A stretch of 26,624 nucleotides of DNA, from the NCBI GenBank assembly GCA_037141195.1, contig JBAXCZ010000027.1, positions 1-26,624 on the forward strand, read 5' to 3'. How positions within the stretch are numbered: position 1 is the stretch's first letter; each line of letters opens with the position of its first letter. The notes under the pieces are model-generated. The model did not search any database. It was not told the origin of the DNA and saw only the letters and a program-made list of their open reading frames with translations. Source of the DNA: Clostridia bacterium. Its GTDB lineage: Bacteria > Bacillota > TC1 > JBAXCZ01. This document shows positions 2,434 through 22,083 of the stretch, in pieces. Position numbers and translations under genes: made by a program.

Positions 2434-2472
2434 GCAGGGAATAGTTCACAAACATTCCGAACAATTAAAGAA

Positions 2473-2493
2473 CGGGCGGGGTTTGCCCGCCCG
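2473..2493 (-). terminator. GC-rich hairpin (CGGGCGGG-gtttg-CCCGCCCG) with a T-rich minus-strand tail. Candidate terminator of the diguanylate cyclase gene. A second 20-bp palindrome sits at 2510-2529.
   Basis: An 8-bp GC stem with a 5-nt loop. The minus strand continues TTCTTTAATTGTT. A neighbouring perfect palindrome reads GGTCGATTCATGAATCGACC. Confidence 0.4.
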
Positions 2494-2667: not shown

Positions 2668-5271
2668 TCAATCCCTACTCCTCTTACTCTCTTCCTTCTT
2701 ATTCTGATACATAAAGTCTTCTGCTTGTTTAAAAATATCATTCATGCTTTCACTTTCACGATTTTTTGTGGCATAACCAAAGGCTATGGAAATATCACTT
2801 GCACATACTGATTCTTGAGCTGAGAGCTCTCTAATTCGCTGAATAATCTTCTCCGCTTCAGCTGCACTAGTATTTGGTAAGAGGATAACAAATTCATCAC
2901 CACCAAGTCTGGCGATAATTTCATCAGCACGACATCCTTCATTCAGGATTTTTGCAGCTTTTTGAAGAAGTTCATCACCAGCTCCATGACCAAAATTGTC
3001 ATTAATCAGCTTCAAGCCGTTAACATCCCCCATAATTAAGGTTAAAGGTAGATTACGCTCAGTATCTAGCCTAGCTAGTTCGGCTTCGTAAAACCTCCGA
3101 TTATAAAGCCCTGTTAGCTGGTCATGATAGCTAAGGTAGAGAATTTCTGCTTCTTTGCTTTTTTGAACCGAAACATCCCAGAAAATTAAAACTGCACCGT
3201 TAATGCTCCCGTTGCCTTGTAGAATTGGCATTGCACTCGCTTCAATCAAACACTCGTTTTTATTCTTATCAACTAAAATAATGTCAATTAATCTGTTAGC
3301 TTCTCCCAACGTAAGTGCTTTAGTAACAATACCTTCACACTTTTCTCTTGTTAACTCACTTAGAATATTAAAGACCTCTGCAATTGCTTGTCCTTTTGCT
3401 TCAAATTGTAAAAATCCTGTGAGTTGTTCTGCAATTCTATTGATAAAGGTTATCTTACCATATTCATCAGTAGTTATTACTCCTTCTCCTACTGTCAACA
3501 GGGTGGTTTCTAAAAGATTTTTCTCGTTTGCTAAAGCTATCTCTAAACTTTTGCGTTCGGTAATATCTTCAATCATGCATAAATAGCGAAATCTACTATC
3601 TTCTGAAAACTTCACCTTTTCTACAATCATCTTGACCCAAATCACTTGTCCAGCTTTGCTCAAATACCTTTTATCAAGTTGAAAGCCGTGTATCTCTCCT
3701 GAACTCAGCTGTTCCATGAGCTTAAGCTCTCTTGGTATATCATCAGGATGAGTATAATCTACCCAACTAATGGTTGCTAACTCTTCACTTGTTCTTCCTA
3801 CAATATTTATAAAGCTCTTATTATATCCATAGGTGATTCCAGTATCCATAATAGTAAGTGCAATCCCAAAAGGCGCTTGCTCAAAGATAGTTCTAAAGCG
3901 TTCTTCACTTTCCCGTAGTGCATCCTCATTATGTTTCTCTTCTGTTATATCCTCTAACATGCAAATATGTTGCGGATTTTCCTTTCCTATTGCTTCAAAT
4001 GTTGTAATCCGCCTATTTACCCAAACTATCGAACCATTTGGCTTTAGCATGCGTTTCTGCATGCTATATTCACCACTCTTATTGCCATTGTTAACAAGCA
4101 ATTCCACATTTTCTAAATCTTTCTGCACATCTGCTGGATGTGTTATGCTCATCCAATCTATTTGCTTTAATTCCTCTATGCTCCGTCCTAATATTTCTGC
4201 ATATTTTGGATTGATATCAAGATATGCTCCCGTTACCGAATCACTTAAAGTTATGCCAAAAGGGGCATTGGAAAAAATCGTCTTGAATTTAATTTCACTT
4301 TGCTCAAGCGCTAAGGCACTAGTTGCTATCTCACTTTGTTGTATTAGTAGTTTCTTATTTGCATCACTAAGGTCTGCTGTTCTTTGTTTTACCATTTTAT
4401 TAAGTTGCCTAATTATTAACAGCACAATCAAAATTATAATTATAGCTCCAAGTAAAACCGCGCCTGCTACCATAATAATAGCTTTATTCAATTGTGCTTG
4501 ATTGGTAAAATCTTCACCAAACCACTTATGATAAATAGTTTCATATACTCCATTATCTTTAATCCTAATTAAGCCTGCATTTAGGAGTTTATATACAGTT
4601 TGATTTTCTTTCAGGGTAACTATGGCATATTTTTCCTCATTGAGAGGACTTCCTACAATTTTAATTTTTTCTAGAGCACCTAAATGCTCCGCAAGGTATA
4701 TCCCAACCCATCTTTGCCCAGCAAATGCTACTGCCTTTTTATCTAGTAAAGCAGAAAAAGCTTCTTCTTGGTCTACAATTGGTAAAGAGATGGTTTCAGG
4801 ATATTTTTTTAAACTTTCTTCTGCAATATCTCCCTTTTGATAGCTGACAATGTGACCTTTTAAGTCATCTGGTCCGTTAATACCTTGTGTATCCTTTAAG
4901 ATAAAAATATTTTGCTGATTTACCACTGTTGCTTCTGTAAAAGCATATTTTTTTGCTCTTGCTTCACTAAATGTCATCCCTTGAAGAGCATCAACCTCTT
5001 GATTATCTAAGGCCTCTATAGCCTCACTCCAATGCATAGGCAGAAATTTTATCTCTATCTTCATTTCTTTAGCTATTGCTCGCATAATATCCACATTAAA
5101 CCCTTGATAAGTGCCATCTTCTGATACAAATTCAAAGGGGGGATAGTTTTCATTTCCTGCTAGTTTGATGATTGTAGGTTCTGTTAGAGCCTGAACTGGT
5201 AAGATATTTATGTTAAGGCATAGTGCTACTAAAAATAGTATTATGCAAAATTTACTTTTTTCAGCTTTCAT
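2668..5271 (-). CDS. Sensor diguanylate cyclase, 867 aa. Domain order: signal peptide, two periplasmic solute-binding (SBP_bac_3-like) domains, a transmembrane helix, PAS domains, and a GGDEF domain.
   Basis: ATG with the SD GAGGTG. There is a signal peptide, the periplasmic motif NYPPFEF, and a transmembrane segment AIIMVAGAVLLGAIIIILIVLLII. Three PAS-like segments follow. The GGDEF domain ends in RLGGDEFVILLP. Confidence 0.9.
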   Translation of the reverse strand: MKAEKSKFCIILFLVALCLNINILPVQALTEPTIIKLAGNENYPPFEFVSEDGTYQGFNVDIMRAIAKEMKIEIKFLPMHWSEAIEALDNQEVDALQGMTFSEARAKKYAFTEATVVNQQNIFILKDTQGINGPDDLKGHIVSYQKGDIAEESLKKYPETISLPIVDQEEAFSALLDKKAVAFAGQRWVGIYLAEHLGALEKIKIVGSPLNEEKYAIVTLKENQTVYKLLNAGLIRIKDNGVYETIYHKWFGEDFTNQAQLNKAIIMVAGAVLLGAIIIILIVLLIIRQLNKMVKQRTADLSDANKKLLIQQSEIATSALALEQSEIKFKTIFSNAPFGITLSDSVTGAYLDINPKYAEILGRSIEELKQIDWMSITHPADVQKDLENVELLVNNGNKSGEYSMQKRMLKPNGSIVWVNRRITTFEAIGKENPQHICMLEDITEEKHNEDALRESEERFRTIFEQAPFGIALTIMDTGITYGYNKSFINIVGRTSEELATISWVDYTHPDDIPRELKLMEQLSSGEIHGFQLDKRYLSKAGQVIWVKMIVEKVKFSEDSRFRYLCMIEDITERKSLEIALANEKNLLETTLLTVGEGVITTDEYGKITFINRIAEQLTGFLQFEAKGQAIAEVFNILSELTREKCEGIVTKALTLGEANRLIDIILVDKNKNECLIEASAMPILQGNGSINGAVLIFWDVSVQKSKEAEILYLSYHDQLTGLYNRRFYEAELARLDTERNLPLTLIMGDVNGLKLINDNFGHGAGDELLQKAAKILNEGCRADEIIARLGGDEFVILLPNTSAAEAEKIIQRIRELSAQESVCASDISIAFGYATKNRESESMNDIFKQAEDFMYQNKKEESKRSRD

Positions 5272-5464
5272 CTATACACCTCATTTCATACTATTCCTAA
5301 CATAATTCTCCACAGATTGATATATTCCTGCTTTTAAGGATGAAATAGTATCAATTTACTTTTGCACAATTATTCTAATTTTTTTTGATAATTGACTTGC
5401 CAATATTTTAACACAGAACTTATCTAAAATTTAATTAAATTACCCTGAATTAAATCTCTTTATG

Positions 5465-5505
5465 CAAAAAAAGTTGCTGAAGAGATACTTGTTCTTCAGC
5501 AACTT
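5465..5505 (-). terminator. Rho-independent terminator of the SLH surface-protein gene
   Basis: A 12-bp stem AAGTTGCTGAAG / CTTCAGCAACTT with an 11-nt loop. On the minus strand it is followed by TTTTTTTGCAT. Confidence 0.7.
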
Positions 5506-5586
5506 AGCTAAAAATATTTTGATATAATGCAAATCCACTACTTTTAGCATAAAATCATCTTTTCAATTACAATAAGTATCATATAT

Positions 5587-8500
5587 CTAAATTAAATTAG
5601 CTTTTATTAATAATCTTTGGATTAATACTGTTGCCTCTGCTCTAGTAATGGTTGCTTTTGGTGCTAGTCGAGAAGTGCTCCTACCATAGATGATACCTTG
5701 CTGTATGGCTTTTGCTATATCTTGCCTTGCCCATGCGCTTATCTGCTGAGAATCTTGGAACTTTGCTAAGAGTTCTGCTGCTTCGCTAGTTTGAATCTGA
5801 ACTCTCAAACCAGATAGTTGCATAGCTTTTGCTAATAAGCTGATAGCTTCCTCTCTAGTGATTTTTTTCTGAGGTGCAAATTCATTTTCACCATATCCAC
5901 TAATTAAATTATATGCTGTTGCTGTAGCGATTGCTCCACTATACCAAGCACTTTCTTGTACATCTGCGAAGCTGTTAGTCCCTTGGCTTGTCTTTATTCC
6001 CAAGCCTCTCATCAAGATGGCAGTAAATTCCGCCCTAGTAATTGCTCTGTTAGGCGCAAATTCCTCTTTGCGAATACCTTTAACTACCATCCGTGAACCC
6101 ATGTCATTGATAGCATGCTTTGCCCAATGCTGTGATACATCCTTAAACTCGATTGGATGCCCAACTAATGCATAGATGCTATTGGTTAGACTGTTGATTA
6201 TTGCAAAATTCCCCCAACCTTGGATGACTATTTTTGTAGGTATGTGTCTTACTGTTCCATCCTGCTCTACTAGGATACTTGTAGTAATCTTGGCTGGATC
6301 TATACCTGCGGATAGAGCTATTGTGCGTTCTACATGGCTAGAAAATTCATTGATCAATATTGTTTTATCACCATAGCTACAGCTCACAGAAAATCCTACA
6401 GCAGGCACAAATATTTTAAATGTCCCAAGTCTTGCTGCATTTTCCAAAACTTGCGCTTGCTCTAATGTTGCTTTACTGATTTCAATGGATACTTTAATAT
6501 CTTTTAAGTCAAGGTTTTTTCCTAACTCTGCTGAGATAGCAGATATCTTAATTTGGGATGCTGGCAGTATATAGCTTGCCTCAGGGGTTTGCATTTCTAC
6601 TATTGCCTGTTTGTCTTCAAGGTTTTTAATCAGTTGCCCATTCAACTGGCTTACAACTCGAGTAGAACTTGTGTTAAAGGGAATTTTAACTACTGCTCCC
6701 TCTCCTGCAATTCTTAGTCTTGTTGTTATTTTCTCTTCATCAAGGATGATAGTGGTAGTGCTTTGTCCACCAATATTATCCTCAACCGTTACACCTCCAC
6801 TAAATTCTAATCCATTAACAAGAATGTCAGTATTGGTATAGGTATAATTATAAGTAGCTATTTTTCCTGCTGCTATCTCTAATTCTACCGCGTCACCTGC
6901 ATTATAATTTATTTTAGCTTGATATCTCACAAGGTATGTTCCTGCTGCTAATCCGTTAATTTCTGCTGCCTTTGCTACTTTGTATAGACTTTCAGTTGCA
7001 AGCTTGTATTCCATCTCTGCGGTTGTCCCTGTAATCTTGCCGTCACTTAAACCATAGGAGGTTGTTTTTATACTTTCTAAGCCTATCGGAGCAATCTGCT
7101 CTGCATTATGCACGGTAATACTTACTTCAGCTACTATTGTTGCCATATTATTGTAGCTAATTGTAATGGCTTCAGTATGAGTTCCAGCTGTTAAATTTAC
7201 TTGTGGCTGAATTGTCCAGGTGTTGATACTATCACCGTAGGCTACTTCCATTCCACTACCCCTAAGAATGAAGCTGTCGCCGCTTACCGTTATATTAGTA
7301 ATATTTGCATTAGTATTGCCACTGTTGGTAATTAAGATAGCTTGTAAGCTCGCTTGCTGAGCACCGTAAGTGATAGCTGCAAAACTCGGGGCAGTTATAC
7401 TGAGCGTATAAGTATTGGCAAGCCCAGACGCAATTGTTATTTCAGCATCTTCACCTGCTTTATAACCTGCTTTAGCTTGAAATCTTACCTGATATGTTCC
7501 TGCTGCTAAGTTGTTTAGTACGCTGCCACTTATTGCAGCATAGGTAGCATTACTCAATAATTTATATTCCATTGCACTAGATACACCAATAATTTTGCCA
7601 TCATTTCTACTAGCAACCGTTTCATCTATCTTACTTAAGCTAGGCGCTGTCTGCTCTAGTGCTATTACTTTTTCCGTCGCAGAGCTTGTAACTATCCCAC
7701 TATAGCTAGCTGTTCCCGATGCGATAACCGTGATTGGTTTACCTACGTCTGCGATTTGCACTGTATAGCTCGCCGAGTTTGTTCCTATATTCTCAGTTCC
7801 TGCTTGCCACTTGTAGCTTACTGTAGCTGCCGCTGGGGTCAGTGTGCCTGCAGTAAGTTTTCCTCCCACAATAGCAACTCCTGAAATTGCTCCAATTTCC
7901 GTAAGAGCAATTGTCCATGCATCTCCACTACGGGAGTATGTATTGGCTTTAGCTGCTCCATAGATTGTTATGAAGTTTGGTGTCGCCGTAGCACTGACAA
8001 AAGCACCTGTTCCAATTGTAGTTGCATTATTCTCCATGGTTACGCGAGCTAAACTGGTACAACCTAAAAAGGCACGCCTGATAATCGTGGAAATATTTAT
8101 TGGTATGGTAATATCTGTTAAACTTGTGCAATTTAAAAATATTCTATCTTCTAATGTTGTTAGACTAGTGCTTAAGACCACACTAACTAAGCTATTACAT
8201 CCATCGAAAGCTTGGATACCAATACTAGTGATACTGTTTGGCAGAGTAATACTAGTAATACTTGTACAAAATTGAAAAGCTCCAGCATCAATAATTTTTA
8301 CTGGAACTCCAGCTAAGGTTGCCGGTATGACTACGTCAGTTGCATTGCCATAGTATTTAATAATCATCGCACTACTTAAATTGCTAGAATAGTAATATGG
8401 AAAAGGATCTATTGTTATGTATGCGATTGCACCTGCATTATAGCCCTCTTTTGCCTGATACCTAACTTGGTAGCTTCCTGCTGCTAAACCACTAATAGTT

Positions 8501-8733
8501 GTTGATGCTGCCGTGGTAAAATTGTCAGCTGTTGATAACTTATATTCCATTGCAGTTGTTGTACCAATTATCTTGCCATTGGTGCTATCATAGTTTGTTG
8601 GGGAAACTGCAACGATACCTGTGGGAGCTGCTTGCTCTAAATTTTCAAACAGATTATAAGCTGCGAAAATTGTGCTAGATAAAAAAGTTATGATCATTAC
8701 ATTCACCAATATTAATCTCATTACTCTTATCAT
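5587..8733 (-). CDS. Large cell-surface protein, 1048 aa. Domain order: signal peptide, three ~70-aa internal repeats, BspA-type leucine-rich repeats, Ig-like regions, and three C-terminal SLH domains.
   Basis: ATG with the SD AGGAG. The signal peptide is MRLILVNVMIITFLSSTIFAA. The motif NGKIIG..AMEYKL....GLAAG.YQVR.QAK.GY.AG recurs three times. The leucine-rich-repeat segment reads ...ITSITLPNSITSIGIQAFDGCNSLVSV.... The C terminus has three SLH motifs (FKDVSQHWAKHAINDM..., FADVQESAWYSGAIATA..., FQDSQQISAWARQDIAKA...). Confidence 0.85.
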   Translation of the reverse strand: MIRVMRLILVNVMIITFLSSTIFAAYNLFENLEQAAPTGIVAVSPTNYDSTNGKIIGTTTAMEYKLSTADNFTTAASTTISGLAAGSYQVRYQAKEGYNAGAIAYITIDPFPYYYSSNLSSAMIIKYYGNATDVVIPATLAGVPVKIIDAGAFQFCTSITSITLPNSITSIGIQAFDGCNSLVSVVLSTSLTTLEDRIFLNCTSLTDITIPINISTIIRRAFLGCTSLARVTMENNATTIGTGAFVSATATPNFITIYGAAKANTYSRSGDAWTIALTEIGAISGVAIVGGKLTAGTLTPAAATVSYKWQAGTENIGTNSASYTVQIADVGKPITVIASGTASYSGIVTSSATEKVIALEQTAPSLSKIDETVASRNDGKIIGVSSAMEYKLLSNATYAAISGSVLNNLAAGTYQVRFQAKAGYKAGEDAEITIASGLANTYTLSITAPSFAAITYGAQQASLQAILITNSGNTNANITNITVSGDSFILRGSGMEVAYGDSINTWTIQPQVNLTAGTHTEAITISYNNMATIVAEVSITVHNAEQIAPIGLESIKTTSYGLSDGKITGTTAEMEYKLATESLYKVAKAAEINGLAAGTYLVRYQAKINYNAGDAVELEIAAGKIATYNYTYTNTDILVNGLEFSGGVTVEDNIGGQSTTTIILDEEKITTRLRIAGEGAVVKIPFNTSSTRVVSQLNGQLIKNLEDKQAIVEMQTPEASYILPASQIKISAISAELGKNLDLKDIKVSIEISKATLEQAQVLENAARLGTFKIFVPAVGFSVSCSYGDKTILINEFSSHVERTIALSAGIDPAKITTSILVEQDGTVRHIPTKIVIQGWGNFAIINSLTNSIYALVGHPIEFKDVSQHWAKHAINDMGSRMVVKGIRKEEFAPNRAITRAEFTAILMRGLGIKTSQGTNSFADVQESAWYSGAIATATAYNLISGYGENEFAPQKKITREEAISLLAKAMQLSGLRVQIQTSEAAELLAKFQDSQQISAWARQDIAKAIQQGIIYGRSTSRLAPKATITRAEATVLIQRLLIKANLI

Positions 8734-8822
8734 TTATCTGCTCCTAGCTAGCTCTGACTATTCTTTTTGTATATATTTTCCCCTATCTAAATTTTTATCC
8801 TTCTCTATTCATTAATACTCCA

Positions 8823-9185
8823 TTACCCATGATTTATGCTCAATCTTGCTAGCATAATTTCTATTTTTTCAGCTTCAAAGGGCAAGAGTAAAAAACCATC
8901 TGCTTCACATTCAAATGCTTCTATTGCATAGGAGCCTTGATTGCTGATAAAGATTACCTTGACTGTTGGATTTAGCCCTCGTAGCTTTGCAGCAAGACTA
9001 AAAGCATTGATTTCAATTTTTCCCATTCTAATCAGTGCCAGACTAGTTGGTACTTCTCGTATGCTTTCTTCAGCAGCTTTTTGTGTAGTGAAAATTCCTT
9101 GACATGACAAGTCTAAATACTTATCTAATATTGTTTTTAGTTCTATTCCATTTTTTCTATCCGGATCTGCAATGAAATATTGCAT
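8823..9185 (-). CDS. Degenerate stand-alone receiver domain (pseudo-receiver), 120 aa
   Basis: It has the REC fold signature (...VKVIFISNQGSYAIEAFECEADGFLLLPF...). The phospho-acceptor position reads LALIRMGK, so Asp is replaced by Arg. The conserved Lys is replaced by Leu (GFLLLPF versus DYLxKPF). ATG start with the SD GGAGG. Confidence 0.7.
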   Translation of the reverse strand: MQYFIADPDRKNGIELKTILDKYLDLSCQGIFTTQKAAEESIREVPTSLALIRMGKIEINAFSLAAKLRGLNPTVKVIFISNQGSYAIEAFECEADGFLLLPFEAEKIEIMLARLSINHG

Positions 9186-9221
9186 AGAGCATAAGCCTCC
9201 TTAAACTTCTCCCTTCATTAT

Positions 9222-9232
9222 ACACCACTAAA
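9222..9232 (-). promoter_or_regulatory. Extended -10 element (TGgTGTATAAT on the minus strand) upstream of the pseudo-receiver gene
   Basis: The minus-strand sequence is tagtgGTGTATAATgaagggagaag, about 35 nt upstream of the SD and ATG at 9185. Confidence 0.3.
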
Positions 9233-9344
9233 CCTAAATAGACCCTAAATGGAATAAGCTTGGCTAGTTTTATATATCCTCTATAGCTCAAACTAGAAGT
9301 GTTTGTTAGCAAATACTGAAACTGTTTCAAGTATATAATATCAT

Positions 9345-10223
9345 TTACTTTTGGTATCTATCGGTAACTTGAAGATTATCCAACACTTCTTGACATTCTA
9401 TAGTAAGCTCCGCTGCTCGTGGATAAGACCATTCATAACCATTTTCCTCTAAATACCCCTGTTGGAGCAATTTTTCTAAAAGTGTAGAATCATCTCTCCT
9501 TCTAAAATTTTTATTCCTTAATTGCTCTTCTAATTGATAGATATCACATTTAATCTGCTCTTGTACGATACGATAATTTCCACGACTGTTTTCTAAAATG
9601 AAGGAGAAACCAATATCTGCTAATTTTTTTCTTAGTAAATAAGTAGTTGCATGAAAATTAGCATGTGCTTTTTCAGCATTATATTCTGGCCAAACTGCAT
9701 CTGCAATCTGCTCCCAATTTAAGGGTATTCCTTTTTTATGTACTAGAAAAGCTAGTACTTCCTTCGCCTTCGAATTCTTCCAGCTAAGCGCTTTCCCGTT
9801 AATGTACATTTCAAAACTTCCTATACATTGCATATATGGTAGAGTTGTTTTTTCTAAGATACTTCTAGGTCTTAGTAATCTTCTTAATATTTTTTCTAGT
9901 CTTTCCAATATTATTGGTTTCATCAGATAATCTACTGCTTGCACATCAAAAGCTTCTACAGCATATTGATTAAAGGCCGTAACAAAAACAATTTCCATCT
10001 TTTCATCTAACTCTAGCAGCTCTTGTGCAAGCTGCAAACCATTTATGCCTGGCATTTCAATATCTAAAAAAACAGCATCAAGCTGTTCTTCACTTAAAAA
10101 ATCTAAAAGCTGTTCCCCAGTTTCAAATAATCCACAAAGTTCTACATCTTTTATTTTTTCCACCATACGAGCAAATCTCTCTAAAACATGCTTTTCATCA
10201 TCTACGGCGGCAATTCTTAGCAT
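9345..10223 (-). CDS. Response regulator with a receiver, an OmpR/SARP-type winged-helix DNA-binding domain and a short BTAD-like C-terminal extension, 292 aa
   Basis: ATG with a strong SD (GAAGGAGGA), 2 bp after the stop of the upstream kinase. The receiver is canonical (VDDE, FLDIEMPG, VTA, DYLMKP). The C-terminal ...EVLAFLVHKKGIPLNWEQIADAVWPE...TTYLLRKKL... matches the trans_reg_C fold. The tail RRDDSTLLEKLLQQGYLEE...EW is BTAD-like. Confidence 0.85.
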   Translation of the reverse strand: MLRIAAVDDEKHVLERFARMVEKIKDVELCGLFETGEQLLDFLSEEQLDAVFLDIEMPGINGLQLAQELLELDEKMEIVFVTAFNQYAVEAFDVQAVDYLMKPIILERLEKILRRLLRPRSILEKTTLPYMQCIGSFEMYINGKALSWKNSKAKEVLAFLVHKKGIPLNWEQIADAVWPEYNAEKAHANFHATTYLLRKKLADIGFSFILENSRGNYRIVQEQIKCDIYQLEEQLRNKNFRRRDDSTLLEKLLQQGYLEENGYEWSYPRAAELTIECQEVLDNLQVTDRYQK

Positions 10224-10225
10224 GT

Positions 10226-12916
10226 TTATTTTTCCTCCTTCGCAAATAATATTTTTACACAGGTACCTATACCTAGCTCGCTACTAATTGCAAGATAGTT
10301 CCCATATAATCTCTGAAGTCGATTATTTATATTAACAATGCCTACCCCTTTTTCTATCCTATCCTCTGAAAAAATTGTTGCCAGCTTTTCCACATTCATG
10401 CCAATACCATCATCTCTAATCTCTATTTCCAAGTTTCCATCGCTCTGCACGATACTCAAATAAACGGTTCCACCATCCAATTTTTTTGAAATTCCATGAC
10501 GAACTGCATTTTCGACTAAGGGTTGAAGCATCAATACTGGAAGTTGATAGCTTAAAGGTATCTCAATTTTTTTTACTAGTTTAATTTTATTACCAAAGCG
10601 TGCCTCTTCAATATGAAAATATGTATCTACAAATTCTAATTCTTTTTCTAAGCTAACCATTTTATCTAGATTGTTGAACTCTAGACTACCTCTTAAATAT
10701 ACTGCTAAATCAAGAATTAATTTGCTTGCTTTGCTACCATCCTTTTCACAAATATTGGCAATAGCATTTAGGGCATTATAAAGGAAATGTGGCTTAATTT
10801 GAGCTTGCAGAAAAGCTGTTTCAGTTTCCATAATTTTATCCTTCAGTTTAGCTGACTCTTTTAATAGTTGTTCTTCGATAATTCGTTTTTTTACATTAAC
10901 CAGCATCTGGGCAAAGATTACCAATAATTCCTTCTCCCGCTCGGTATATGCATGCATGCTTTTCACAGCATCAAAACCTACAAAACCTATTAAAATACCC
11001 TCACTAAGCATTGGAACTGTTATCAAGCTCTTGATTCCTTGGGGTTCAAGTACTTCTCTTAAGCCTCCCATCTCATCTTTGGGTAACAAGCTAACATCAT
11101 CCACATAAAAAGCCTCTCCTAATACATGCTTTTCTACCCATTGAGAAACGACTTTTAATGAAATATTTTGCAGGTTCATCTTTTCAGCATTGATGCCATC
11201 TCTACACCATTCATAGGTGTTAGAGGTAGTATCTTTTATAAAATCATATTCGAAAATATATGATCTATCAGCCCCCACAAATTCTGCTATCTCTTGCAGT
11301 GACTTTTCCATGGTATTTCCAAATTCCGACAAATCTATATTGATGTAGACAGATGATATTTTTAGGATTAAATCTTGCATCTTGGAATAATATTCAATTT
11401 GTTCTTCTTGCTTTTTCTTAGCTGTGATATCTCTCATAATTCCATCAACTCTAATGGGGTGTTGATTAATGTCGAAAATTAGCTTCAGCCTTTCATCAAT
11501 CCAAATTATTTCCCCATCAGCTCTAATAATTCTAAATTCTAATTGAGAATCACCCAATTTTTCCAACGCTTCTAAATTTTTTTCCACGCTCTTTCTATCC
11601 TCAGGATAAATTAATTCAATCCACTTAAAGGTTTTTTCATTTATAACTTTATCTTCCAGACCATATAAAGCTTGCACCGATGGACTAATATATAATCTTT
11701 CCAAACTTGGCCATACAGCAGACCACACTACATCGCGCATATTACTCATGATGCTACTAAACTTCTCCTCTGTCTTAAACAATTCTCCTTCGATTTTTCG
11801 GATATCTGTTATGTCATTCATCACTGTCAAATAAGACTGTTCTAGCTGATTGTCAATCATTTCTCCAGAAAAAAGACCATCTAAGATTCCTCCATCTTTT
11901 TTCCTAGCTTGCAGTTCAAAGTTTGTTAATTTACCTACTTGTTGAAGAACCTTCTGAGCCTCTGCCTGCTTTGAATTTTCAATGAATAGACCAAGCTCTA
12001 TACTTGTTTTTCCAATGACCTCTTCCTTTGTATAACCTAGCTTTTTTAAAAATGTTGAGTTAACATCTGTAAACTTATCGTTTTGCATATTTGTTAATGC
12101 CATTAATGCTGGGTTATTATCAAATATTTTTTGAAATTTATCAAAAGCTGCCTGTTGCAAGGTTAAATCTTTGGAAATGCCAAAAATGCAGTCCATCCCA
12201 TCCCATTTACCAAACCATACTCTCGTTTCCACTGATAAAAAGCTTTTATCTTTTCTACCAAGTGGCAAGGGACAAGTGCTTCGCTTGCCTGCAAACATAT
12301 CTCCAAAAATCTGTTCTGCCTCAGCTCTTTTTTCTGCTGGATGCACATCGAGAATATGCATGCCGATTAGCTCTTCCATCTTATATCCCAGCTTAGTAAT
12401 TGCCGCTGTATTGGCATAGATAATTCTGCCTTCTGGATTACCAACTAGGAAGATATCATCTACAGTTTCAAAAAATGTGCGAAAGTTAGCTTCACTCTCT
12501 TTTAACTTATTTTCGACATTTCTATGCTCGCTAATATCTTCGAAAAGATAGAAACGCCCAAAGTAATCATCGTCATCTCCGCGCATTTGAGTAGAAAATC
12601 TGCGTATTGTTCTTCCATCTAAAAAAGGGATATAATCTTCAATCGTAATACGATTTTCTTCACTTTGTAATGGCTTACAAGATTCAGCAAAGGCTGGCAC
12701 ATCTGCTAAAACAGCCAGACAGTCTGGTAAAATCTGATTATTTGTCAGTTCTCCCCTTTGCATTTTTGCTTCTAAGTGTGTTATTCCCCAGATTTCACAA
12801 AACTTATGATTAAAATGCAAAATCTCATCGGTGCGATTGTCCACCACTAAAAGGGCAAGTGTAGAGATGCTCGACATCAATTTTAAAAATAATTCATTTT
12901 CTATTTTTTTACTCAT
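10226..12916 (-). CDS. Cytoplasmic sensor histidine kinase: a PAS x4-GAF sensor fused to a LytS/YehU-type transmitter (His_kinase PF06580 plus HATPase_c), about 897 aa
   Basis: There are no transmembrane segments. The GAF segment contains IAEFVGADRSYIFEYDF. The transmitter has LQAQIKPHFLYNALNAIANIC, the PF06580 signature. The ATPase has ENAVRHG...DDGIGM. The ORF-track start at 12988 is a TTG extension. I place the start at ATG 12916 (MSKKIENELFLK), which aligns with the paralog's N-terminus and has a GGAG upstream. Confidence 0.85.
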   Translation of the reverse strand: MSKKIENELFLKLMSSISTLALLVVDNRTDEILHFNHKFCEIWGITHLEAKMQRGELTNNQILPDCLAVLADVPAFAESCKPLQSEENRITIEDYIPFLDGRTIRRFSTQMRGDDDDYFGRFYLFEDISEHRNVENKLKESEANFRTFFETVDDIFLVGNPEGRIIYANTAAITKLGYKMEELIGMHILDVHPAEKRAEAEQIFGDMFAGKRSTCPLPLGRKDKSFLSVETRVWFGKWDGMDCIFGISKDLTLQQAAFDKFQKIFDNNPALMALTNMQNDKFTDVNSTFLKKLGYTKEEVIGKTSIELGLFIENSKQAEAQKVLQQVGKLTNFELQARKKDGGILDGLFSGEMIDNQLEQSYLTVMNDITDIRKIEGELFKTEEKFSSIMSNMRDVVWSAVWPSLERLYISPSVQALYGLEDKVINEKTFKWIELIYPEDRKSVEKNLEALEKLGDSQLEFRIIRADGEIIWIDERLKLIFDINQHPIRVDGIMRDITAKKKQEEQIEYYSKMQDLILKISSVYINIDLSEFGNTMEKSLQEIAEFVGADRSYIFEYDFIKDTTSNTYEWCRDGINAEKMNLQNISLKVVSQWVEKHVLGEAFYVDDVSLLPKDEMGGLREVLEPQGIKSLITVPMLSEGILIGFVGFDAVKSMHAYTEREKELLVIFAQMLVNVKKRIIEEQLLKESAKLKDKIMETETAFLQAQIKPHFLYNALNAIANICEKDGSKASKLILDLAVYLRGSLEFNNLDKMVSLEKELEFVDTYFHIEEARFGNKIKLVKKIEIPLSYQLPVLMLQPLVENAVRHGISKKLDGGTVYLSIVQSDGNLEIEIRDDGIGMNVEKLATIFSEDRIEKGVGIVNINNRLQRLYGNYLAISSELGIGTCVKILFAKEEK
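10886..12902. repeat. About 2.0 kb segmental duplication, copy A. It encodes the sensor module of the LytS-type kinase. Copy B is at 16330-18344.
   Basis: Direct DNA alignment holds across the span at an offset near 5442 bp with small indels. The segment 10891-10935 reads tttttttacattaaccagcatctgggcaaagattaccaataattcc. The segment 16331-16378 reads ttttttcacattaaccagcatctgcgcaaagattactaataattcc. The proteins are about 85% identical from IENELFLK to LVNVKKRI. Confidence 0.75.
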
Positions 12917-13256
12917 TTTCTTCTTTTCTCCTTCTATTTTCAAGCGCTTTAACCTCCGAAGCTTAGCTAAATGTGAATCTCTCCGCAAGTTGATGTACTG
13001 TTAGAACAATCCTCATAAATCACTATACTTGCTTTTGATAATATGTTCTCAGCTTATAGGCTTCTTAAAATAAAATAACCCGTAGCTGGAAAATACAGTG
13101 TTATTCATATATTAGGATGCTGCAATATTTGTCTCTGAACTATTATTACTGTCAGGTGATTTTGGTAAACAAGCTATCCAGAAATTCAACTTTATAAATC
13201 ATATTCTATGCTAAATAACTCACTGTCACAATATTTTTTTAGTTCTATTATAAACA

Positions 13257-13302
13257 AAACAGCTAGGCTTATGCAGTTAATTATGCCTAAGACTAGCTGT
13301 TT
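13257..13302 (-). terminator. Candidate terminator hairpin downstream of the HD-GYP regulator gene
   Basis: A 10-bp stem AAACAGCTAG / CTAGCTGTTT encloses a structured 26-nt loop with an inner TAGGC/GCCTA stem. It lies 43 bp past the stop at 13345. The flanks are only moderately U-rich. Confidence 0.35.
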
Positions 13303-13344
13303 ATTTTAAATTTAAAGTTCATTAATCTCTTAGCTATTGTTAAA

Positions 13345-14433
13345 TTATTCATTATACATTGCGATAAATTCTTGCTCACAAGCTAAAAAACCTTCTACCA
13401 CAGTAGGATCAAAGTGACTTCCGCTATCTTTTATAATAATATTTCTGCTAATTTCATGGCTAAGAGCTTCTTTATATGGCCTTTTTGTTCTAATAGCATC
13501 ATAGGCATCAGCGAGCGCAACGATGCGAGCTGCTATTGGGATAGCTTCGCCTGCTAATCCATCGGGATATCCTTTACCATTCCATTTTTCGTGATGAGAA
13601 CGTGCTATTTCAAAACCCGTCTTAGTAAATTTGTTTTGTGGGTATTTATCAACAACCTCACTAAGAGTTTTTTCTCCTATTAATGTGTGCTTTTTAATCT
13701 CTTCAAATTCTGTATCTGTTAATTTACCAGGCTTTAAGAGAATACTATCTTTAATTCCCACTTTACCAATATCATGCAGAAGGCTTGCTTTCTCAATAAC
13801 ACTAATAACTTCAGCTGTTAAGATATTTTTATACTCAGCCTTTTTACTTAACTCTGCAGCCAATAACCTGCAACCATTCTGAACCCGTTCTAGATGACCA
13901 CCAGTGTCATCATCCCTAGATTCTGCAAGCTTAGCCAATGCATAGATGGTAGCCATTTGCGCATCAATTACCTCTTCGGTTCGTTCATCTAACTTTATAC
14001 TCAAAGATTTATTTGCCTCAGCTAACTGTTGTTGCAAATTATGGAGATTTAATTGAGTGTTTATCCTTGCTCTGACCTCTTCACATTGAAAAGGTTTTGT
14101 AATATAATCTACCCCACCAAGCTCAAATGCCTTCACTTTATCAAAAGCTTCTCCTAAAGCGCTTACAAAAATTATAGGTATATTTTTTAATTTAGCATCA
14201 CCCTTGATGCGTTTGCATACCTCATAGCCACCCATACCAGGCATGATTACATCTAATAAAACTAAATCAGGCAGTATCTTTGCATCAGATAATAGTTGCA
14301 AAGCTTTTTCACCATTTAAGGCAATTTGACAAATACAATTCACCGGCAAGATGCTTCCCAAGACATCTATTTCTTCTGGGCTGTCATCCACAATTAATAT
14401 TTTTACATTTTTTACTTCAATCGAATTTTTCAA
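13345..14433 (-). CDS. Response regulator with a receiver domain and an HD-GYP c-di-GMP phosphodiesterase domain, 362 aa
   Basis: TTG start with the SD GAGGAG, which overlaps the 3' end of the upstream hybrid kinase. The receiver has ILIVDD..., LLDVIMPGMGGY..., DYITKPF. The HD-GYP domain has LHDIGKVGI...HHEKWNGKGYP. Confidence 0.9.
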   Translation of the reverse strand: MKNSIEVKNVKILIVDDSPEEIDVLGSILPVNCICQIALNGEKALQLLSDAKILPDLVLLDVIMPGMGGYEVCKRIKGDAKLKNIPIIFVSALGEAFDKVKAFELGGVDYITKPFQCEEVRARINTQLNLHNLQQQLAEANKSLSIKLDERTEEVIDAQMATIYALAKLAESRDDDTGGHLERVQNGCRLLAAELSKKAEYKNILTAEVISVIEKASLLHDIGKVGIKDSILLKPGKLTDTEFEEIKKHTLIGEKTLSEVVDKYPQNKFTKTGFEIARSHHEKWNGKGYPDGLAGEAIPIAARIVALADAYDAIRTKRPYKEALSHEISRNIIIKDSGSHFDPTVVEGFLACEQEFIAMYNE

Positions 14434-14449
14434 AGTTTTCTCCTCTGTT

Positions 14450-17400
14450 TTAATCTAATTCTTTTAAGATTTGTAAAGCGGCTTCAAATCTATAGTCGTC
14501 TAAACAGGCTTTTATATCTAAAAATTTTTCATTGGAATTTAAGCATTCAGTTTGCCTCAGAATTCCCTCTAAACAATTCACTGAGGCCATATCATTTTCC
14601 TGTAATAAAAGTGCAAGTTCTTTTTTAAGTGAGCTAATACTCGAGAAATCAGCTATTCCTATAGGATTTCCTTTAGCAACTAACTTTCTATCGTTCAAGT
14701 TACCAAGTGCATTAAATGCCTCTAATAGCGCTTCATCTAAATCGTCTGTTAAAACATTTAACTCAGCTAACTGCTTATTTTTCAGAGCATTTTCTAGTGC
14801 TATAGCACTTTTAACTACCTTCTCCGCCGCAATGTGTCCCGCTACACCCTTTACTGTATGTACAAGCCTCTCAGCTATTTCTAACTTGCCACAGCTTAAA
14901 GCTTTCTTGATATCTACTATAGTGCTATATTGATTTTTATGAAATTTTCTTAAGATTTTTTTTAAAAGCTCTTCATTATATTCTAAACTCGAAAGTGCTT
15001 TGAGATAATCAATCCCCGCAGGCTCTAATACTTTAACTATCTCGCGCGTTAATTCATCTAACACTATTTTTTCTTCTATGGGGTGATATTCTACAAATTC
15101 TTCAGCTACTGCCAATACATTCGGAATCGAACTGTGCTTGTGCCACAATGCCATTTTATTAAAAAGTACCACTGTAGTAATTGGCTTACTGATAAAATCG
15201 TTGATTCCTGCCTCAAGACATTTTTCTTTCTCATCTAAAAATGAGCTGGCTGATACTGCAATGATTGGTAAATCTTCAAAGCTCCTGAATTTTCTTATTT
15301 CCTTTGTGGCTTGATATCCATCCATATCAGGCATTCTAATATCCATTAATACCATATCATAATTTTTCTTCTTAATATAGGCAACTGCTGCTGCACCACT
15401 ATGTGTCATAGTCACTTTAATTTTTGCTAAATGCAGTATTTCAAAAAGTACATCCTGATTAAGCTCGTTATCCTCAACTACTAAAACATGCATACCCTCT
15501 AATTGCTCTATTATTTCTCGTCTTGGAGCTTTGAAAATGAACTGATTATTTGGTTCAAGAATTCCGTAATTTTTATTGATATGATTAAAACAAGCCGTAA
15601 AGAAAAAAGTGCTTCCACTGCCTATTTCACTCTGGAACCATATTTCACCTCCGAATAGCTCAACATATTTTTTAGTTATGGCAAGGCCTAAACCTGTTCC
15701 ACTATAGCTTCTACTATTTTCAGTGTCTACTTGATAGAATGGTTCAAATATATGTTTCCCTACTTCCTCCTCAATCCCAATTCCTGTATCTCTAATAGAA
15801 AAGTGCAGTCTAAGATAATCTTTACAATTTTCTGCCACTTTTACCCTAACTACAACTTCACCTTTATTGGTATACTTTACCGCATTACTTAACAAATTTG
15901 CTAAAATTTGTTGTAACCGTATGCTATCTCCAATAAGATTTGATGGCACATTTTCCTCAATATTTATGAGTATTTTTAGCCCCTTTAGCTCAATAATTTG
16001 CTGCAAGAGATTCGCAGCAGCATCTAAGCTTGCTCTTAGGTTAAATCGTTCTGTACGCAAGATTACATTTTTAGATTCAATTTTATCTAAATCCAGAATA
16101 TCATTGATTATTGCTAACAAAAGCTTCGATGAACTTTTGATTTTATCTAAATAATCATGTTGCTTCTCTGTTAAGGTAAAGTTATTGAGCAATTCTACAT
16201 AGGCAATTAATCCATTAATTGGCGTACGAATTTCATGGCTCATATTGGACAAAAATTGAGTTTTGATATTATTTGCTCTGATTGCCTCCTCATTAGCCAA
16301 GTGTAAACTTTGCTCGGTGTTAATCCGTTTTTTCACATTAACCAGCATCTGCGCAAAGATTACTAATAATTCCTTCTCCTTATCAGTGTAAAAATGTTTG
16401 CTTTTCACAGCATCAAAACCTACAAACCCTATTAAAATACCGTCGCTAAGCATTGGAACTGTTATCAAGCTCTTGATACCTTGAGGTTCAAGTACCTCTC
16501 TTAAGCCTCCAATACCATCTTGGGGTAGCAAACTAACATCGTCTACATAAAAAGCTTCTCCTAGTGCATGCTTTTCTACCCATTGAGGAATAGCAACTAA
16601 CGGAATATTTTGTAAATTCATAATTTCAGCATTGATGCTTTCACTACACCATTCATGTGTGTTAGAGGTAGTGTTTTTTACAAAGTCATAGTCGAAAATA
16701 TATGATCTGTCTGCCCCTACAAATTCTGCTAGCTCTTGCAGTGATTCTTCTAAGATATTTTCGAATTCTGACAAATCTATATTGATGTAGACAGATGATA
16801 TTTTTAAGATTAAGTCTTGCATCGTTGAATAATATTCAATTTGCTCATCTTGCTTTTTCTTAGCCGTAATATCCCGAATAATTCCATCAACCCTAATCGG
16901 CTGTTTATTCCGATCATAAATCAGCTTCATTCGTTCATCGACCCAAATTATTTCCCCATTGGCTCTAATAATTCTAAATTCATGTTGAGAATTCCCCAAT
17001 TCTTCTAGAGTTGCTAACTTGTTTGACAAACTCTGTTTATCCTCTGGATGAATAAATTCATTCCAGTTGAAGGTATTTTTATTAACTACACACTCATCTA
17101 CTCCGAACAAGTCTTTTGCTGATGGACTAACATAAAAATTTTCCAAGCTAGGCCAAGCAGAAGACCAGACAAAATCCAGCATATTATTCATAATACTGCT
17201 AAAATTCTCCTCTGTTTTGACCAAGTCTCTTTCGATTTTTCTAATTTCAGTTATGTCATTCATTACTGTTAAATAAGATTGCTCTAGCTGATTGTCGATT
17301 ATCTCACCAGAAAAAAGACCATCTATAATTCCTCCGTCTTTTTTCTTCGCTTGTAATTCAAAATTTATTAATTTTCCTTCTTGTAGTAGTACATTAAGCG

Positions 17401-18385
17401 CTTCACCCTGTTTTTCATTTTCAATAAATAGACCAATTTCTGTGCTAGTTTTACCAATGACCTCTTCTTTTGTATATCCCAGATTATTTAAAAAAGTTGA
17501 GTTAACATCTGTAAATTTCTTATCCAGCAAATTTGTTACTGCCATCAATGCTGGATTATTATCAAAGATTTTTTGAAATTTATCAAATGCTGCCTGTTGC
17601 AAGGTCAAATCTTTGGAAATGCCAAAAATGCAGTCCATCCCGTCCCATTTGCCAAACCACACTCTAGTCTCTACAGGTAAATAGCTTTTATCTTTTCTGC
17701 CAAGGGGCAAGGGGCAAGAGCTTCTCTTACCTGCAAACATATCACCAAAAATTACCTCTGCTTCCGCTCTTTTTTCTGCTGGATGTACGTCGAGAATATG
17801 CATACCGATTAGTTCTTCTAAAGTATAACCCAGCTTAGCAAGTGCTGCAGCATTCGCATAAATAATTTTACCTTCTGGGCTGCCAACTAGGAAGATATCA
17901 TCCACGGTTTCAAAGAATGTGCGAAAGTTGGCTTCGCTTTCTCTTAATTTTGCTTCTACATTTTTTTGCTGGCTGATATCTTCGAAAAGGTAGAAACGCC
18001 CAAAGTAAGCATCGTTCTCTCCACGTATTTGGGTAGAGAATCTGCGAATTGTCCTTCCATCTAAAAAAGGAATATAATCTTCAATTGTAATACGATTTTC
18101 TTCACTTTGTAATGGCTTACAAGATTCAGCAAAAGCTGGTACATCTGCTAAAACAGCCAGACAGTCTGGTATAATCTGATTATTTGTAAGTTCTCCCCTT
18201 TGCATTTGTGCTTCTAAGTGTGTTATTCCCCAGATTTCGCAAAACTTATGATTAAAATGCAAAATCTCATCGGTGCGATTATCTACAACAAAAAAAGCAA
18301 ACGGCGAGGTTTTAGTCATCATTTTTAAAAATAATTCATTTTCAATACCCTTATTAACTATTTTTCCTTCTTTATCAATATTCAT
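14450..18385 (-). CDS. Cytoplasmic hybrid sensor histidine kinase with a PAS x4-GAF sensor, HisKA, HATPase_c, a receiver and an HPt domain, 1311 aa
   Basis: ATG with the SD GGAGG. The H-box is MSHEIRTPINGL. The ATPase has DTGIGI...GTGLGLAI. The receiver has VLVVEDNELNQ...LMDIRMPDMDGY...ISKPI. The HPt motif is LVHTVKGVAGHIAAEK. The N-terminal ~690 aa are paralogous to 10226-12916. Confidence 0.9.
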   Translation of the reverse strand: MNIDKEGKIVNKGIENELFLKMMTKTSPFAFFVVDNRTDEILHFNHKFCEIWGITHLEAQMQRGELTNNQIIPDCLAVLADVPAFAESCKPLQSEENRITIEDYIPFLDGRTIRRFSTQIRGENDAYFGRFYLFEDISQQKNVEAKLRESEANFRTFFETVDDIFLVGSPEGKIIYANAAALAKLGYTLEELIGMHILDVHPAEKRAEAEVIFGDMFAGKRSSCPLPLGRKDKSYLPVETRVWFGKWDGMDCIFGISKDLTLQQAAFDKFQKIFDNNPALMAVTNLLDKKFTDVNSTFLNNLGYTKEEVIGKTSTEIGLFIENEKQGEALNVLLQEGKLINFELQAKKKDGGIIDGLFSGEIIDNQLEQSYLTVMNDITEIRKIERDLVKTEENFSSIMNNMLDFVWSSAWPSLENFYVSPSAKDLFGVDECVVNKNTFNWNEFIHPEDKQSLSNKLATLEELGNSQHEFRIIRANGEIIWVDERMKLIYDRNKQPIRVDGIIRDITAKKKQDEQIEYYSTMQDLILKISSVYINIDLSEFENILEESLQELAEFVGADRSYIFDYDFVKNTTSNTHEWCSESINAEIMNLQNIPLVAIPQWVEKHALGEAFYVDDVSLLPQDGIGGLREVLEPQGIKSLITVPMLSDGILIGFVGFDAVKSKHFYTDKEKELLVIFAQMLVNVKKRINTEQSLHLANEEAIRANNIKTQFLSNMSHEIRTPINGLIAYVELLNNFTLTEKQHDYLDKIKSSSKLLLAIINDILDLDKIESKNVILRTERFNLRASLDAAANLLQQIIELKGLKILINIEENVPSNLIGDSIRLQQILANLLSNAVKYTNKGEVVVRVKVAENCKDYLRLHFSIRDTGIGIEEEVGKHIFEPFYQVDTENSRSYSGTGLGLAITKKYVELFGGEIWFQSEIGSGSTFFFTACFNHINKNYGILEPNNQFIFKAPRREIIEQLEGMHVLVVEDNELNQDVLFEILHLAKIKVTMTHSGAAAVAYIKKKNYDMVLMDIRMPDMDGYQATKEIRKFRSFEDLPIIAVSASSFLDEKEKCLEAGINDFISKPITTVVLFNKMALWHKHSSIPNVLAVAEEFVEYHPIEEKIVLDELTREIVKVLEPAGIDYLKALSSLEYNEELLKKILRKFHKNQYSTIVDIKKALSCGKLEIAERLVHTVKGVAGHIAAEKVVKSAIALENALKNKQLAELNVLTDDLDEALLEAFNALGNLNDRKLVAKGNPIGIADFSSISSLKKELALLLQENDMASVNCLEGILRQTECLNSNEKFLDIKACLDDYRFEAALQILKELD
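16330..18344. repeat. About 2.0 kb segmental duplication, copy B. It encodes the sensor module of the hybrid kinase.
   Basis: See copy A (10886-12902). The duplication ends exactly at the linker before the kinase core (LVNVKKRI), after which the two genes diverge completely. Confidence 0.75.
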
Positions 18386-18630
18386 TAGGCCTTAACCTCC
18401 ATTTAATAAATAATTGTGTAACACTCCACTTTATAGGCTACATTTATTTTTTTTTATCTTTAGTTTTATAAAAGTATTGAAAAATAAAAAACTGCCCAAG
18501 TATTTTCGGTTACGCTACTAGCTCGCATAGGGGAAAGCGTCCAAATACTCCGCCCATGGTCATCACTCAAATTCTCTAACAGTTATTGTAACTTTACTTC
18601 TATTTATTGCTATTGTCAATTAAATTCATT

Positions 18631-19696: not shown

Positions 19697-19807
19697 TTAA
19701 TACTGTTTTTTCGCCTTTTTTGTTGCTCCTGTAGAATTTGGAGCAATTACTGTTTTGTCAGCTTTTTTCTTCTTTTCTTCTTTTTTCTTTGGACTTTTAT
19801 CTCCCAT
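19697..19807 (-). CDS. Small lysine-rich protein A, 36 aa: MGDKSPKKKEEKKKKADKTVIAPNSTGATKKAKKQY
   Basis: ATG at 19807 preceded by a perfect SD (GGAGGttttcacc, 8 nt spacing). A TATAAT -10 sits at 19828-19833 on the minus strand. I translated it by hand codon by codon. It is a paralog of 21973-22083. It is below the ORF-track length cutoff. Confidence 0.55.
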   Translation of the reverse strand: MGDKSPKKKEEKKKKADKTVIAPNSTGATKKAKKQY

Positions 19808-21972: not shown

Positions 21973-22083
21973 CTATTTCGGTCTTTTTACCGTATCCATA
22001 ATTGATGAACTTGGTGTATTAGTAGCCTTCTTATCAGTTTTTTTCTTCTTCTTTTCTTTATCCTTAGGACTCTTGTCTCCCAT
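21973..22083 (-). CDS. Small lysine-rich protein B, 36 aa: MGDKSPKDKEKKKKKTDKKATNTPSSSIMDTVKRPK
   Basis: ATG at 22083 with a perfect SD (GGGAGGtagttact, 8 nt). An upstream TTGCAA-N18-TATATT promoter-like pair is present. It has its own terminator. The first 18 aa are nearly identical to protein A. Confidence 0.55.
   Translation of the reverse strand: MGDKSPKDKEKKKKKTDKKATNTPSSSIMDTVKRPK

Follow-up and report, generated by a model that had tools for sequence, protein, structure and literature searches.

Several described systems come close to the signalling genes discussed here. In the RpfC/RpfG pair of Xanthomonas, adjacent genes encode a hybrid histidine kinase with a histidine phosphotransfer (HPt) domain and a response regulator in which a receiver (REC) domain precedes an HD-GYP domain, the phosphodiesterase type that degrades cyclic di-GMP (c-di-GMP). 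In LytS/LytR and BtsS/BtsR, a kinase is coupled to a regulator with a LytTR output domain, whereas the SARP activators AfsR, ActII-ORF4 and DnrI serve the antibiotic clusters of actinomycetes. SARP promoters follow a simple rule, in which the activator box is formed by 11-bp direct repeats, overlaps the -35 region and has some 8 bp between its 3' repeat and the -10 element (PMC10936776). Here we compare with these systems a region of seven genes at positions 2668-18385 of a 26,624-nucleotide stretch (the window) of contig JBAXCZ010000027.1 from a Clostridia bacterium (assembly GCA_037141195.1). In the direction of transcription, the genes encode a hybrid histidine kinase (HK1), a REC-HD-GYP response regulator, a LytS-type kinase (HK2), a response regulator with a winged helix-turn-helix (wHTH) output (RR2), a pseudo-receiver, a surface protein carrying SLH domains and leucine-rich repeats, and a sensor diguanylate cyclase. 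With moderate confidence, we read this region as a composite, specific to its lineage, of signalling modules that are each conserved on their own and are linked here by a copied sensor, rather than as one conserved system.

All long open reading frames (ORFs) of the window lie on the minus strand, and Pfam profiles, from which the domain calls on the window proteins were taken, confirmed all seven genes of the region with nearly the domains that the original prediction, made from the letters alone, had listed. The tight spacing that it reported holds only within the two kinase-regulator pairs, where the gaps measure 16 bp (HK1 and the HD-GYP gene) and 2 bp (HK2 and RR2); elsewhere, the genes are separated by about 400, 159, 89 and 315 bp. 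Because intrinsic terminators are predicted behind the HD-GYP, SLH and cyclase genes, the region appears to comprise at least four transcription units, delimited by predicted terminators and promoters, rather than one tight operon. Unit 1 would contain HK1 and the REC-HD-GYP gene, unit 2 HK2 and RR2, unit 3 the pseudo-receiver and the surface protein, and unit 4 the cyclase, all on the minus strand. The terminator closing unit 1 (13250-13300, minus strand) pairs ACAGCTAG with GCCTAGCTGT ahead of TTTGTTTAT, and was also hit on both strands by hairpin-type noise matches (13258-13301) in the Rfam scan, with which we searched both strands of the window for non-coding RNA elements. Unit 3 is closed by a hairpin of AGTTGCTGAAGA and TCTTCAGCAACT followed by TTTTTT (5466-5504, minus strand), and unit 4 by a strong terminator of eight G-C pairs followed by a T-run (2463-2493, minus strand).

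The link between the first two units lies in their kinases. HK1 (14450-18385, minus strand, 1311 aa) consists of three to four PAS domains, GAF, HisKA, HATPase_c, REC and Hpt according to Pfam, and its sensor (four PAS domains and GAF) is predicted to be cytoplasmic and soluble. HK2 (10226-12943, minus strand) has four PAS domains and GAF in front of a LytS-type His_kinase domain (PF06580, 84 bits) and HATPase_c (48 bits). About 700 N-terminal residues of the two kinases are 80% identical at the amino acid level and 83% at the nucleotide level, in a mosaic whose local amino acid identity ranges from 96% down to 54%, and the similarity is lost abruptly at the transmitter. The homology begins at the ribosome-binding site (RBS) and excludes the candidate riboswitch of the HK1 leader described below. 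The HK2 reading frame spans 10226-12988, and translation probably starts at TTG 12943 rather than 12988, since it is there that its RBS and opening codons line up with their HK1 counterparts. The HK2 transmitter is 62-67% identical to those of LytS-type kinases with a 7TMR-DISM_7TM sensor, and the relatives that could be seen whole have a 7TMR-DISM sensor or a dual-kinase architecture (with 7TMR-DISM in loci L099 and L100), never PAS-GAF. Conversely, PF06580 is absent from the 120 closest homologs of the PAS-GAF sensor, most of which are HisKA hybrid kinases or GGDEF/HD-GYP proteins. Since neither family is otherwise found with the other's module, HK2 appears to be a chimera whose sensor was taken from the HK1 lineage, so that the usual 7TMR-DISM membrane sensor of a LytS-type kinase would have been replaced by a copy of the HK1 PAS-GAF module. 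The same HK1, HD-GYP and HK2 junctions recur in three independent metagenome assemblies.

Two side observations concern the kinases. In L001 (4315-5523), the HK2 ortholog resembles HK1 more closely than HK2 at its N-terminus (94.5% against 88.6% identity), which could be due to gene conversion between the paralogous sensors or to a repeat-induced chimeric contig. Further, a "double kinase" is present in many loci of the RR2 family (L099 4858-7908, L100 4897-8004 and L005 6797-9943, and also L018, L021, L023, L024, L027 and L029). In L099 and L100, it reads 7TMR-DISM-HisKA-HATPase-REC-His_kinase-HATPase, with a HisKA/REC unit fused before the LytS-type unit, a layout suggestive of an internal relay that gates the second kinase.

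RR2 (9345-10223, minus strand, 292 aa) combines a REC domain, in which all catalytic residues are conserved, with an OmpR-type wHTH, for which the Pfam match to Trans_reg_C is weak (20 bits against a cut-off of 26.2), and three BTAD-like helices. Its AlphaFold model contains REC, the OmpR-type wHTH and three further helices, and in Foldseek, 166-177 residues at the C-terminus aligned with EmbR and with the SARP domain of AfsR, the latter taken from transcription-complex structures, at a root-mean-square deviation of 4.0-4.6 Å. These modelled structures support an output made of the wHTH and a short BTAD-like helical part, that is, a truncated BTAD. The family is large, with 3751 matches at E ≤ 1e-10 and members of about 288 aa; RR2 is 57-66% identical to members in Desulfosporosinus, Desulfitobacterium, Acetivibrio, Oxobacter and Clostridium. 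Database labels of the members vary between "SARP family" and "LytT family" regulators, no NCBIfam model reached its cut-off for RR2, and our literature searches for such regulators (REC with BTAD in Firmicutes, or 7TMR-DISM with flagellin) found no description. The RR2 module is widespread in Firmicutes and apparently unstudied. A scan of GTDB species representatives returned only two loci with RR2 relatives, and orthologs made up only about 5 of the 80 loci returned when metagenomes were scanned with the RR2 alignment; that scan was dominated by the generic receiver pattern FLDIEMP, and its remaining loci served as negative background. In sequence comparisons, the pair of a LytS-type kinase and a REC-wHTH regulator comes out as conserved, and HK2 would be expected to phosphorylate RR2.

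A predicted target of RR2 was found next to its own gene. The RR2 box in the window (9230-9251, minus strand) consists of two 11-bp direct repeats, CATTTAGGGTC and TATTTAGGTTT, and the -10 element TATAAT of the unit 3 promoter (9217-9222, minus strand) follows 7 nt past it. Boxes of this kind occur in ten distinct loci (the window, L006, L009, L011, L014, L015, L016, L099, L100 and L101), about 100-130 bp past the stop codon of the regulator gene, with a 22-bp consensus of CATTTAGGGTT CATTTAGGGTT, then 7 nt (nGTGnTT) and a -10 element (TATnAT). The box is weak in L016, has four repeats in L099 and is present only in degenerate form in L011; in all nine loci with a readable -10 element, the 7-nt spacing is identical. 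At up to three mismatches, the 22-mer was found nowhere else in the 0.93 Mb of DNA that we fetched. Single 11-mer half-sites are at chance level in the window (8 found, 10.8 expected); only the tandem pair is meaningful. This geometry fits the SARP promoter rule (PMC10936776). We hypothesize that RR2 binds the predicted box as a side-by-side dimer on the two 11-bp repeats, occupying the -35 region, and that binding turns on the downstream "cargo" operon, here the pseudo-receiver and the SLH-anchored protein. A different set of repeats was seen in L006, where TTTAAGG direct repeats with an 11-bp period (530-551, plus the set at 708-729; minus and plus strand, respectively) lie between an OmpR-type regulator and VTC/DUF4956 genes; they resemble a separate regulator box, possibly a PhoP-like one.

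The cargo itself is the second recurring property. In the window, the first gene of unit 3 (8823-9185, minus strand, 120 aa) encodes a REC-like protein with a Pfam REC match of 28 bits, under the cut-off of 30.2. We call it a pseudo-receiver because its phospho-Asp is replaced by Arg and its conserved Lys by Leu, and the same substitutions are found in the L006 ortholog, which is 52-54% identical; the original call of a pseudo-receiver is borne out. The copy in L009 is frameshifted. The protein may act in feedback, either by competing with RR2 for HK2 or by pairing with RR2. The second gene (5587-8733, minus strand) encodes a secreted 1048-aa protein with, as had been predicted, leucine-rich repeats (LRR_5) and SLH anchoring, for which a signal peptide and three SLH domains were found; over its pre-SLH region and the SLH domains, it shares 34-44% identity with the cargo proteins in L006 and L022. 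It also contains three repeats of about 75 aa (residues ~36-108, ~360-435 and ~555-625) with the pattern GKI.G....MEYK....L.AG.Y.VR..A, which match, well below cut-off, the C-terminal part of the NCBIfam model "MAG6410 family transglutaminase-related lipoprotein".

Elsewhere, the box precedes an orthologous pseudo-receiver and two SLH proteins (L006), a decayed pseudo-receiver and an LRR_5/Big_3 protein of >5,375 aa (L009), a secreted Big_4 protein (L014), three CsrA paralogs and a 1073-aa flagellin (L015), two CsrA genes and flagellins in a flagellar locus (L101), a frameshifted GGDEF gene and a Big_3 protein (L016), and an NHL/Flg_new protein of >1,734 aa (L100). Extracellular or surface cargo (SLH, LRR_5, NHL/Flg_new, Big_3, Big_4 or flagellin) is thus present in 8 of the 10 distinct loci, and among more distant relatives, L020 adjoins a giant LRR_5/MBG protein and L022 a dockerin and cohesin-SLH pair. 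Because box and promoter are conserved and extracellular cargo recurs, the predicted link from regulator to surface protein is well supported as a conserved property of the RR2 family, and the suspected connection of RR2 to the adjacent surface-protein gene stands. The tandem CsrA paralogs (three in L015, 11171-12006; two in L101, 9038-9700) are located between the box and the flagellin genes, and alternative flagellins may be controlled by this regulator family by way of CsrA.

The other kinase-regulator pair belongs to a different conserved module. The REC-HD-GYP regulator (13345-14433, minus strand, 362 aa), of the c-di-GMP phosphodiesterase type, is intact in its HDIGK, HHEKWNGKGYP and ADAYDA Asp motifs and in the DD/D/S/K residues of its receiver, and HK1 has both the H-box MSHEIRTP and the HPt motif HTVKG. 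Orthologs of the regulator (54-63% identity) were found directly after a hybrid kinase with HPt in all loci examined, the pairing being kept in L093, L095, L097 and L098, and the HK1 transmitter, including the HPt region, is 38-40% identical to the hybrid kinases that precede REC-HD-GYP genes in other loci. By sequence, the two genes thus form a conserved cassette of the RpfC/RpfG type, which agrees with the relay originally proposed, except that the Shine-Dalgarno sequence of the HD-GYP gene (GAGGAG) does not overlap the HK1 stop codon, as had been stated, and lies 4 nt past it. Phosphate would pass from His to Asp, to the HPt His and on to the REC-HD-GYP regulator, which would lower c-di-GMP. 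The kinases of the orthologous cassettes have sensors different from that of HK1 (PocR, or HK_sensor_dom_bact with PAS). In L097 (2446-17449), the cassette and three downstream genes are doubled as a perfect inverted duplication, which is probably a hairpin assembly artefact.

Unit 1 also has the most direct putative c-di-GMP link within the window, a candidate c-di-GMP-II riboswitch (RF01786) in the 5' leader of HK1 (18495-18579, minus strand), just outside the originally delimited region and overlooked there. A sigma-70-like promoter (TTGACA-17-TAAAGT; 18591-18619, minus strand; score 10/12, by consensus match only) separates the candidate from the stop codon of VanW (18631); the candidate begins a few bases past the promoter-like site and lies about 110 nt ahead of the HK1 start codon. 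The match scores 44.0 bits (E 1.1e-6 for the whole window) and covers model positions 1-84 of 84, with 9 of 11 pairs in P1, 3 of 3 in P2 and 8 of 8 in P3, and with the conserved blocks GAUGA, GUAUUUGG and AACCG. Its loop ACGC is the complement of 3' GCGU, where the consensus reads GCAC and GUGC; we take these segments to be a putative pseudoknot. Five extra pairs between AACUG (18584-18580) and CAGUU (18494-18490) lengthen P1, and a U-run right behind its 3' strand (18480-18491, minus strand) is a possible expression platform. The geometry of P1 and U-run hints at termination upon P1 stabilisation. The riboswitch would probably gate unit 1 transcription and provide feedback, positive or negative, on the c-di-GMP pool.

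Alternatively, the match might be a false positive, the leader an ordinary AT-rich 5' untranslated region and unit 1 regulated at its promoter only. The candidate is 9.5 bits under the Rfam gathering score of 53.5, and the leader folds no better than shuffled sequences (z = +1.1), with no clear terminator/antiterminator pair seen. Likewise, no homologous leader for covariation was found: three distant HK/HD-GYP cassettes have no homologous riboswitch, and an exact look-up of HK1 returned no match and hence no further copies of the leader. However, E is 1e-6 over both strands and all 4227 families scanned, the whole model is matched with the three helices paired and the conserved blocks kept, the changes in the loop and 3' segment are mutually complementary, which a covariance model cannot credit, and the position is apt, a few nucleotides from the predicted transcription start and upstream of a c-di-GMP enzyme gene. 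We regard the false-positive explanation as doubtful, and retain the candidate as a putative riboswitch. The Rfam scan found no other riboswitch upstream of HK2, the pseudo-receiver/SLH unit or the cyclase in the window, and scanning ten RR2-family loci returned only a NiCo riboswitch in L013 (3866-3960, 70.6 bits) upstream of a P-type ATPase, which is unrelated to the finding.

The sensor diguanylate cyclase of unit 4 (2668-5271, minus strand, 867 aa) consists of a signal peptide, one SBP_bac_3 domain (residues 35-253) resembling amino-acid-binding proteins, a transmembrane segment, three PAS domains and GGDEF. The original prediction had given it two solute-binding domains, of which only this single one was found, and had left the transmembrane segment and PAS domains unmentioned. 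The GGDEF motif is intact (PF00990, 125 bits); at the I-site position, five residues upstream, RADEIIARLGGDEF has RADE, an RxxE in register, and RxxD is absent. No RR2 box was found upstream of the cyclase, HK1 or HK2 in the window, and no conserved linkage of the cyclase among the RR2-family or HD-GYP-family relatives examined. We interpret it as an independent neighbour in a separate transcription unit, which could connect to the other units only through the common c-di-GMP pool.

These data bear on whether the cyclase, phosphodiesterase relay and RR2 form one fully integrated c-di-GMP/adhesion circuit in which c-di-GMP directly controls expression of the surface protein. It would agree with the co-orientation and proximity of the seven genes and with the riboswitch candidate that connects unit 1 to c-di-GMP. 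Two relatives are also suggestive. In L016, a short, decayed GGDEF gene (10933-11386) lies directly beneath an RR2-type box, the sole RR2-family locus seen with c-di-GMP cargo, and in L095, a PAS-GGDEF-HD-GYP gene whose GGDEF is 53% identical to that of the window precedes the HK/HD-GYP cassette. In contrast, the Rfam scan of the regions ahead of the SLH unit and of HK2/RR2 detected neither a c-di-GMP riboswitch nor a known effector, the cyclase is unlinked in every relative examined, and RR2 has no recognised c-di-GMP-binding domain, and we therefore consider such a circuit quite improbable. Of the integrated island first proposed, the regulator-cargo link and the sensor paralogy stand, while the cyclase falls outside, having neither an RR2 box nor conserved linkage.

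It is also conceivable that the neighbourhood is coincidental, with the modules and the cyclase merely side by side and the sensor copy a neutral remnant of tandem duplication that reads different cues, so that nothing is integrated. Clostridia have a great many signalling genes, the region has at least four terminator-separated units, the cyclase and both kinases lack an upstream RR2 box, the fourth PAS regions of the two sensors have diverged, and none of the related loci examined has the composite. Specifically, the co-occurrence check proposed with the original prediction found the full seven-gene arrangement in 0 of about 20 related loci, which is largely the outcome that the prediction had named as its refutation. 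In the loci examined, the orthologous HD-GYP cassettes have neither an RR2 module nor an SLH gene nor a comparable cyclase beside them, with L095 as a partial exception, and none of the RR2-family loci examined has an HD-GYP gene. Within the reach of these data, the seven-gene set thus occurs in this lineage only. On the other hand, the sensor replacement is precise and in-frame, with about 700 residues at 80% identity and stretches at 96%, suggesting purifying selection or gene conversion, and the HK1/HD-GYP/HK2 junction was recovered in all three independent assemblies. We find mere coincidence rather unlikely.

Our preferred reading, a composite of independently conserved modules joined by a copied sensor, has to be set against several further observations, which weigh against it. 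The fourth PAS region of HK1 and HK2 is only 54-66% identical at the amino acid level and may now read different cues, so that the "shared" PAS/GAF sensor of the original prediction holds as paralogy and not as one sensor. The nearest available orthologs are 62-66% identical, and the composite may or may not be maintained by selection. Two of the ten boxed loci have non-surface cargo, rubrerythrin-like in L011, where the box is degenerate, and a methyltransferase in L099. For RR2, no Pfam match to BTAD was obtained, and its model has only a moderate pLDDT of 72, which falls below 50 in REC residues 82-126; of the predicted LytS-type kinase with a REC-wHTH-BTAD regulator, the coupled pair is thus conserved, while BTAD is backed by the structure model, as a short BTAD-like part, and not by Pfam.

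If the composite reading is correct, the same or a similar cytoplasmic cue would now drive both c-di-GMP breakdown and expression of the surface protein. A more ambitious interpretation, which we offer tentatively, is that the RR2 module is a very widespread Firmicute surface-display switch with a variable cargo of giant SLH, LRR or flagellin proteins and with SARP-style sigma adaptation under the control of phosphorylation, rewired here by sensor replacement, with the co-induced pseudo-receiver as a feedback brake. As part of this joint and equally tentative interpretation, one cytoplasmic PAS-GAF cue might bring about both a fall in c-di-GMP and the display of a new surface protein.

The surroundings do not set the region apart. 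We rejected the idea that the "island" is horizontally acquired DNA: in a composition scan, GC content (32-42%) and skew are uniform along the window, mobility genes are absent from it, and nothing marks a boundary. The flanking genes are unrelated housekeeping and regulatory genes (MarR, FMN_bind, flavodoxin, VanW, hydrolase, TetR, SPFH and FprA-like). At 797-863, a long perfect hairpin of about 25 bp, with microRNA-like Rfam matches on both strands and a minus-strand T-run, probably terminates the MarR/FMN_bind/flavodoxin operon. Two paralogous lysine-rich ORFs of 36 aa (MGDKSPKKKEEKKKK...; 19697-19807 and 21973-22083, both minus strand) have similar RBS regions, and their DNA repeat is 77% identical across 75 nt.

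None of these findings overturns current concepts. They do provide a testable regulon for a response-regulator family of thousands without a named function, with a defined box, fixed promoter geometry and surface-protein or flagellin cargo, and they would extend SARP-type activation beyond actinomycete antibiotic clusters to phosphorylation-controlled Firmicute regulators. The window is also a clean natural case of signalling rewiring through replacement of a sensor module, useful for understanding and engineering input swaps in two-component systems, and the candidate riboswitch upstream of the phosphodiesterase relay, if true, would mean that c-di-GMP homeostasis in Clostridia has a further level of feedback.

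Compared with RpfC/RpfG, the domain order of kinase and regulator is the same, the genes are likewise adjacent, and neither the HPt motif HxxKG nor the metal-ligand and GYP residues of the HD-GYP domain are altered. The input differs, being a cytoplasmic PAS-GAF module (four PAS domains) instead of the membrane sensor of diffusible signal factor (DSF) in RpfC. No rpfF-like signal synthase or enoyl-CoA-hydratase-like gene was found within the window, and the relay has a candidate riboswitch in its leader. That candidate resembles the c-di-GMP-II class in its full-length match, P1-P3 helices and conserved blocks, and in its position ahead of a gene for c-di-GMP turnover, in the 5' leader, in a Clostridia-type genome; it departs from the class in scoring below the gathering threshold and in its putative pseudoknot letters, which are off consensus yet complementary. 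HK2 and RR2 resemble LytS/LytR and BtsS/BtsR in the PF06580 dimerization and histidine phosphotransfer domain with the H-box IKPHFLYN, followed by HATPase_c, in a receiver closest to those of BtsR and LytR, and in gene coupling (the 2-bp gap here, a 4-bp overlap in relatives). Unlike those systems, the output is SARP-like with no LytTR match, and the sensor is PAS-GAF in the window and 7TMR-DISM in relatives, not 5TM-Lyt. With the SARP activators and the EmbR fold, RR2 shares a wHTH and following helices that superpose over 166-177 residues. It differs in having an N-terminal phospho-receiver and a LytS-type partner kinase, in a BTAD part reduced to about three helices that Pfam does not detect, and in Firmicute hosts with surface-protein and flagellin targets. 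The kinds of component are thus known; what is new is the REC-SARP family with its pattern of box and cargo, and the sensor swap.

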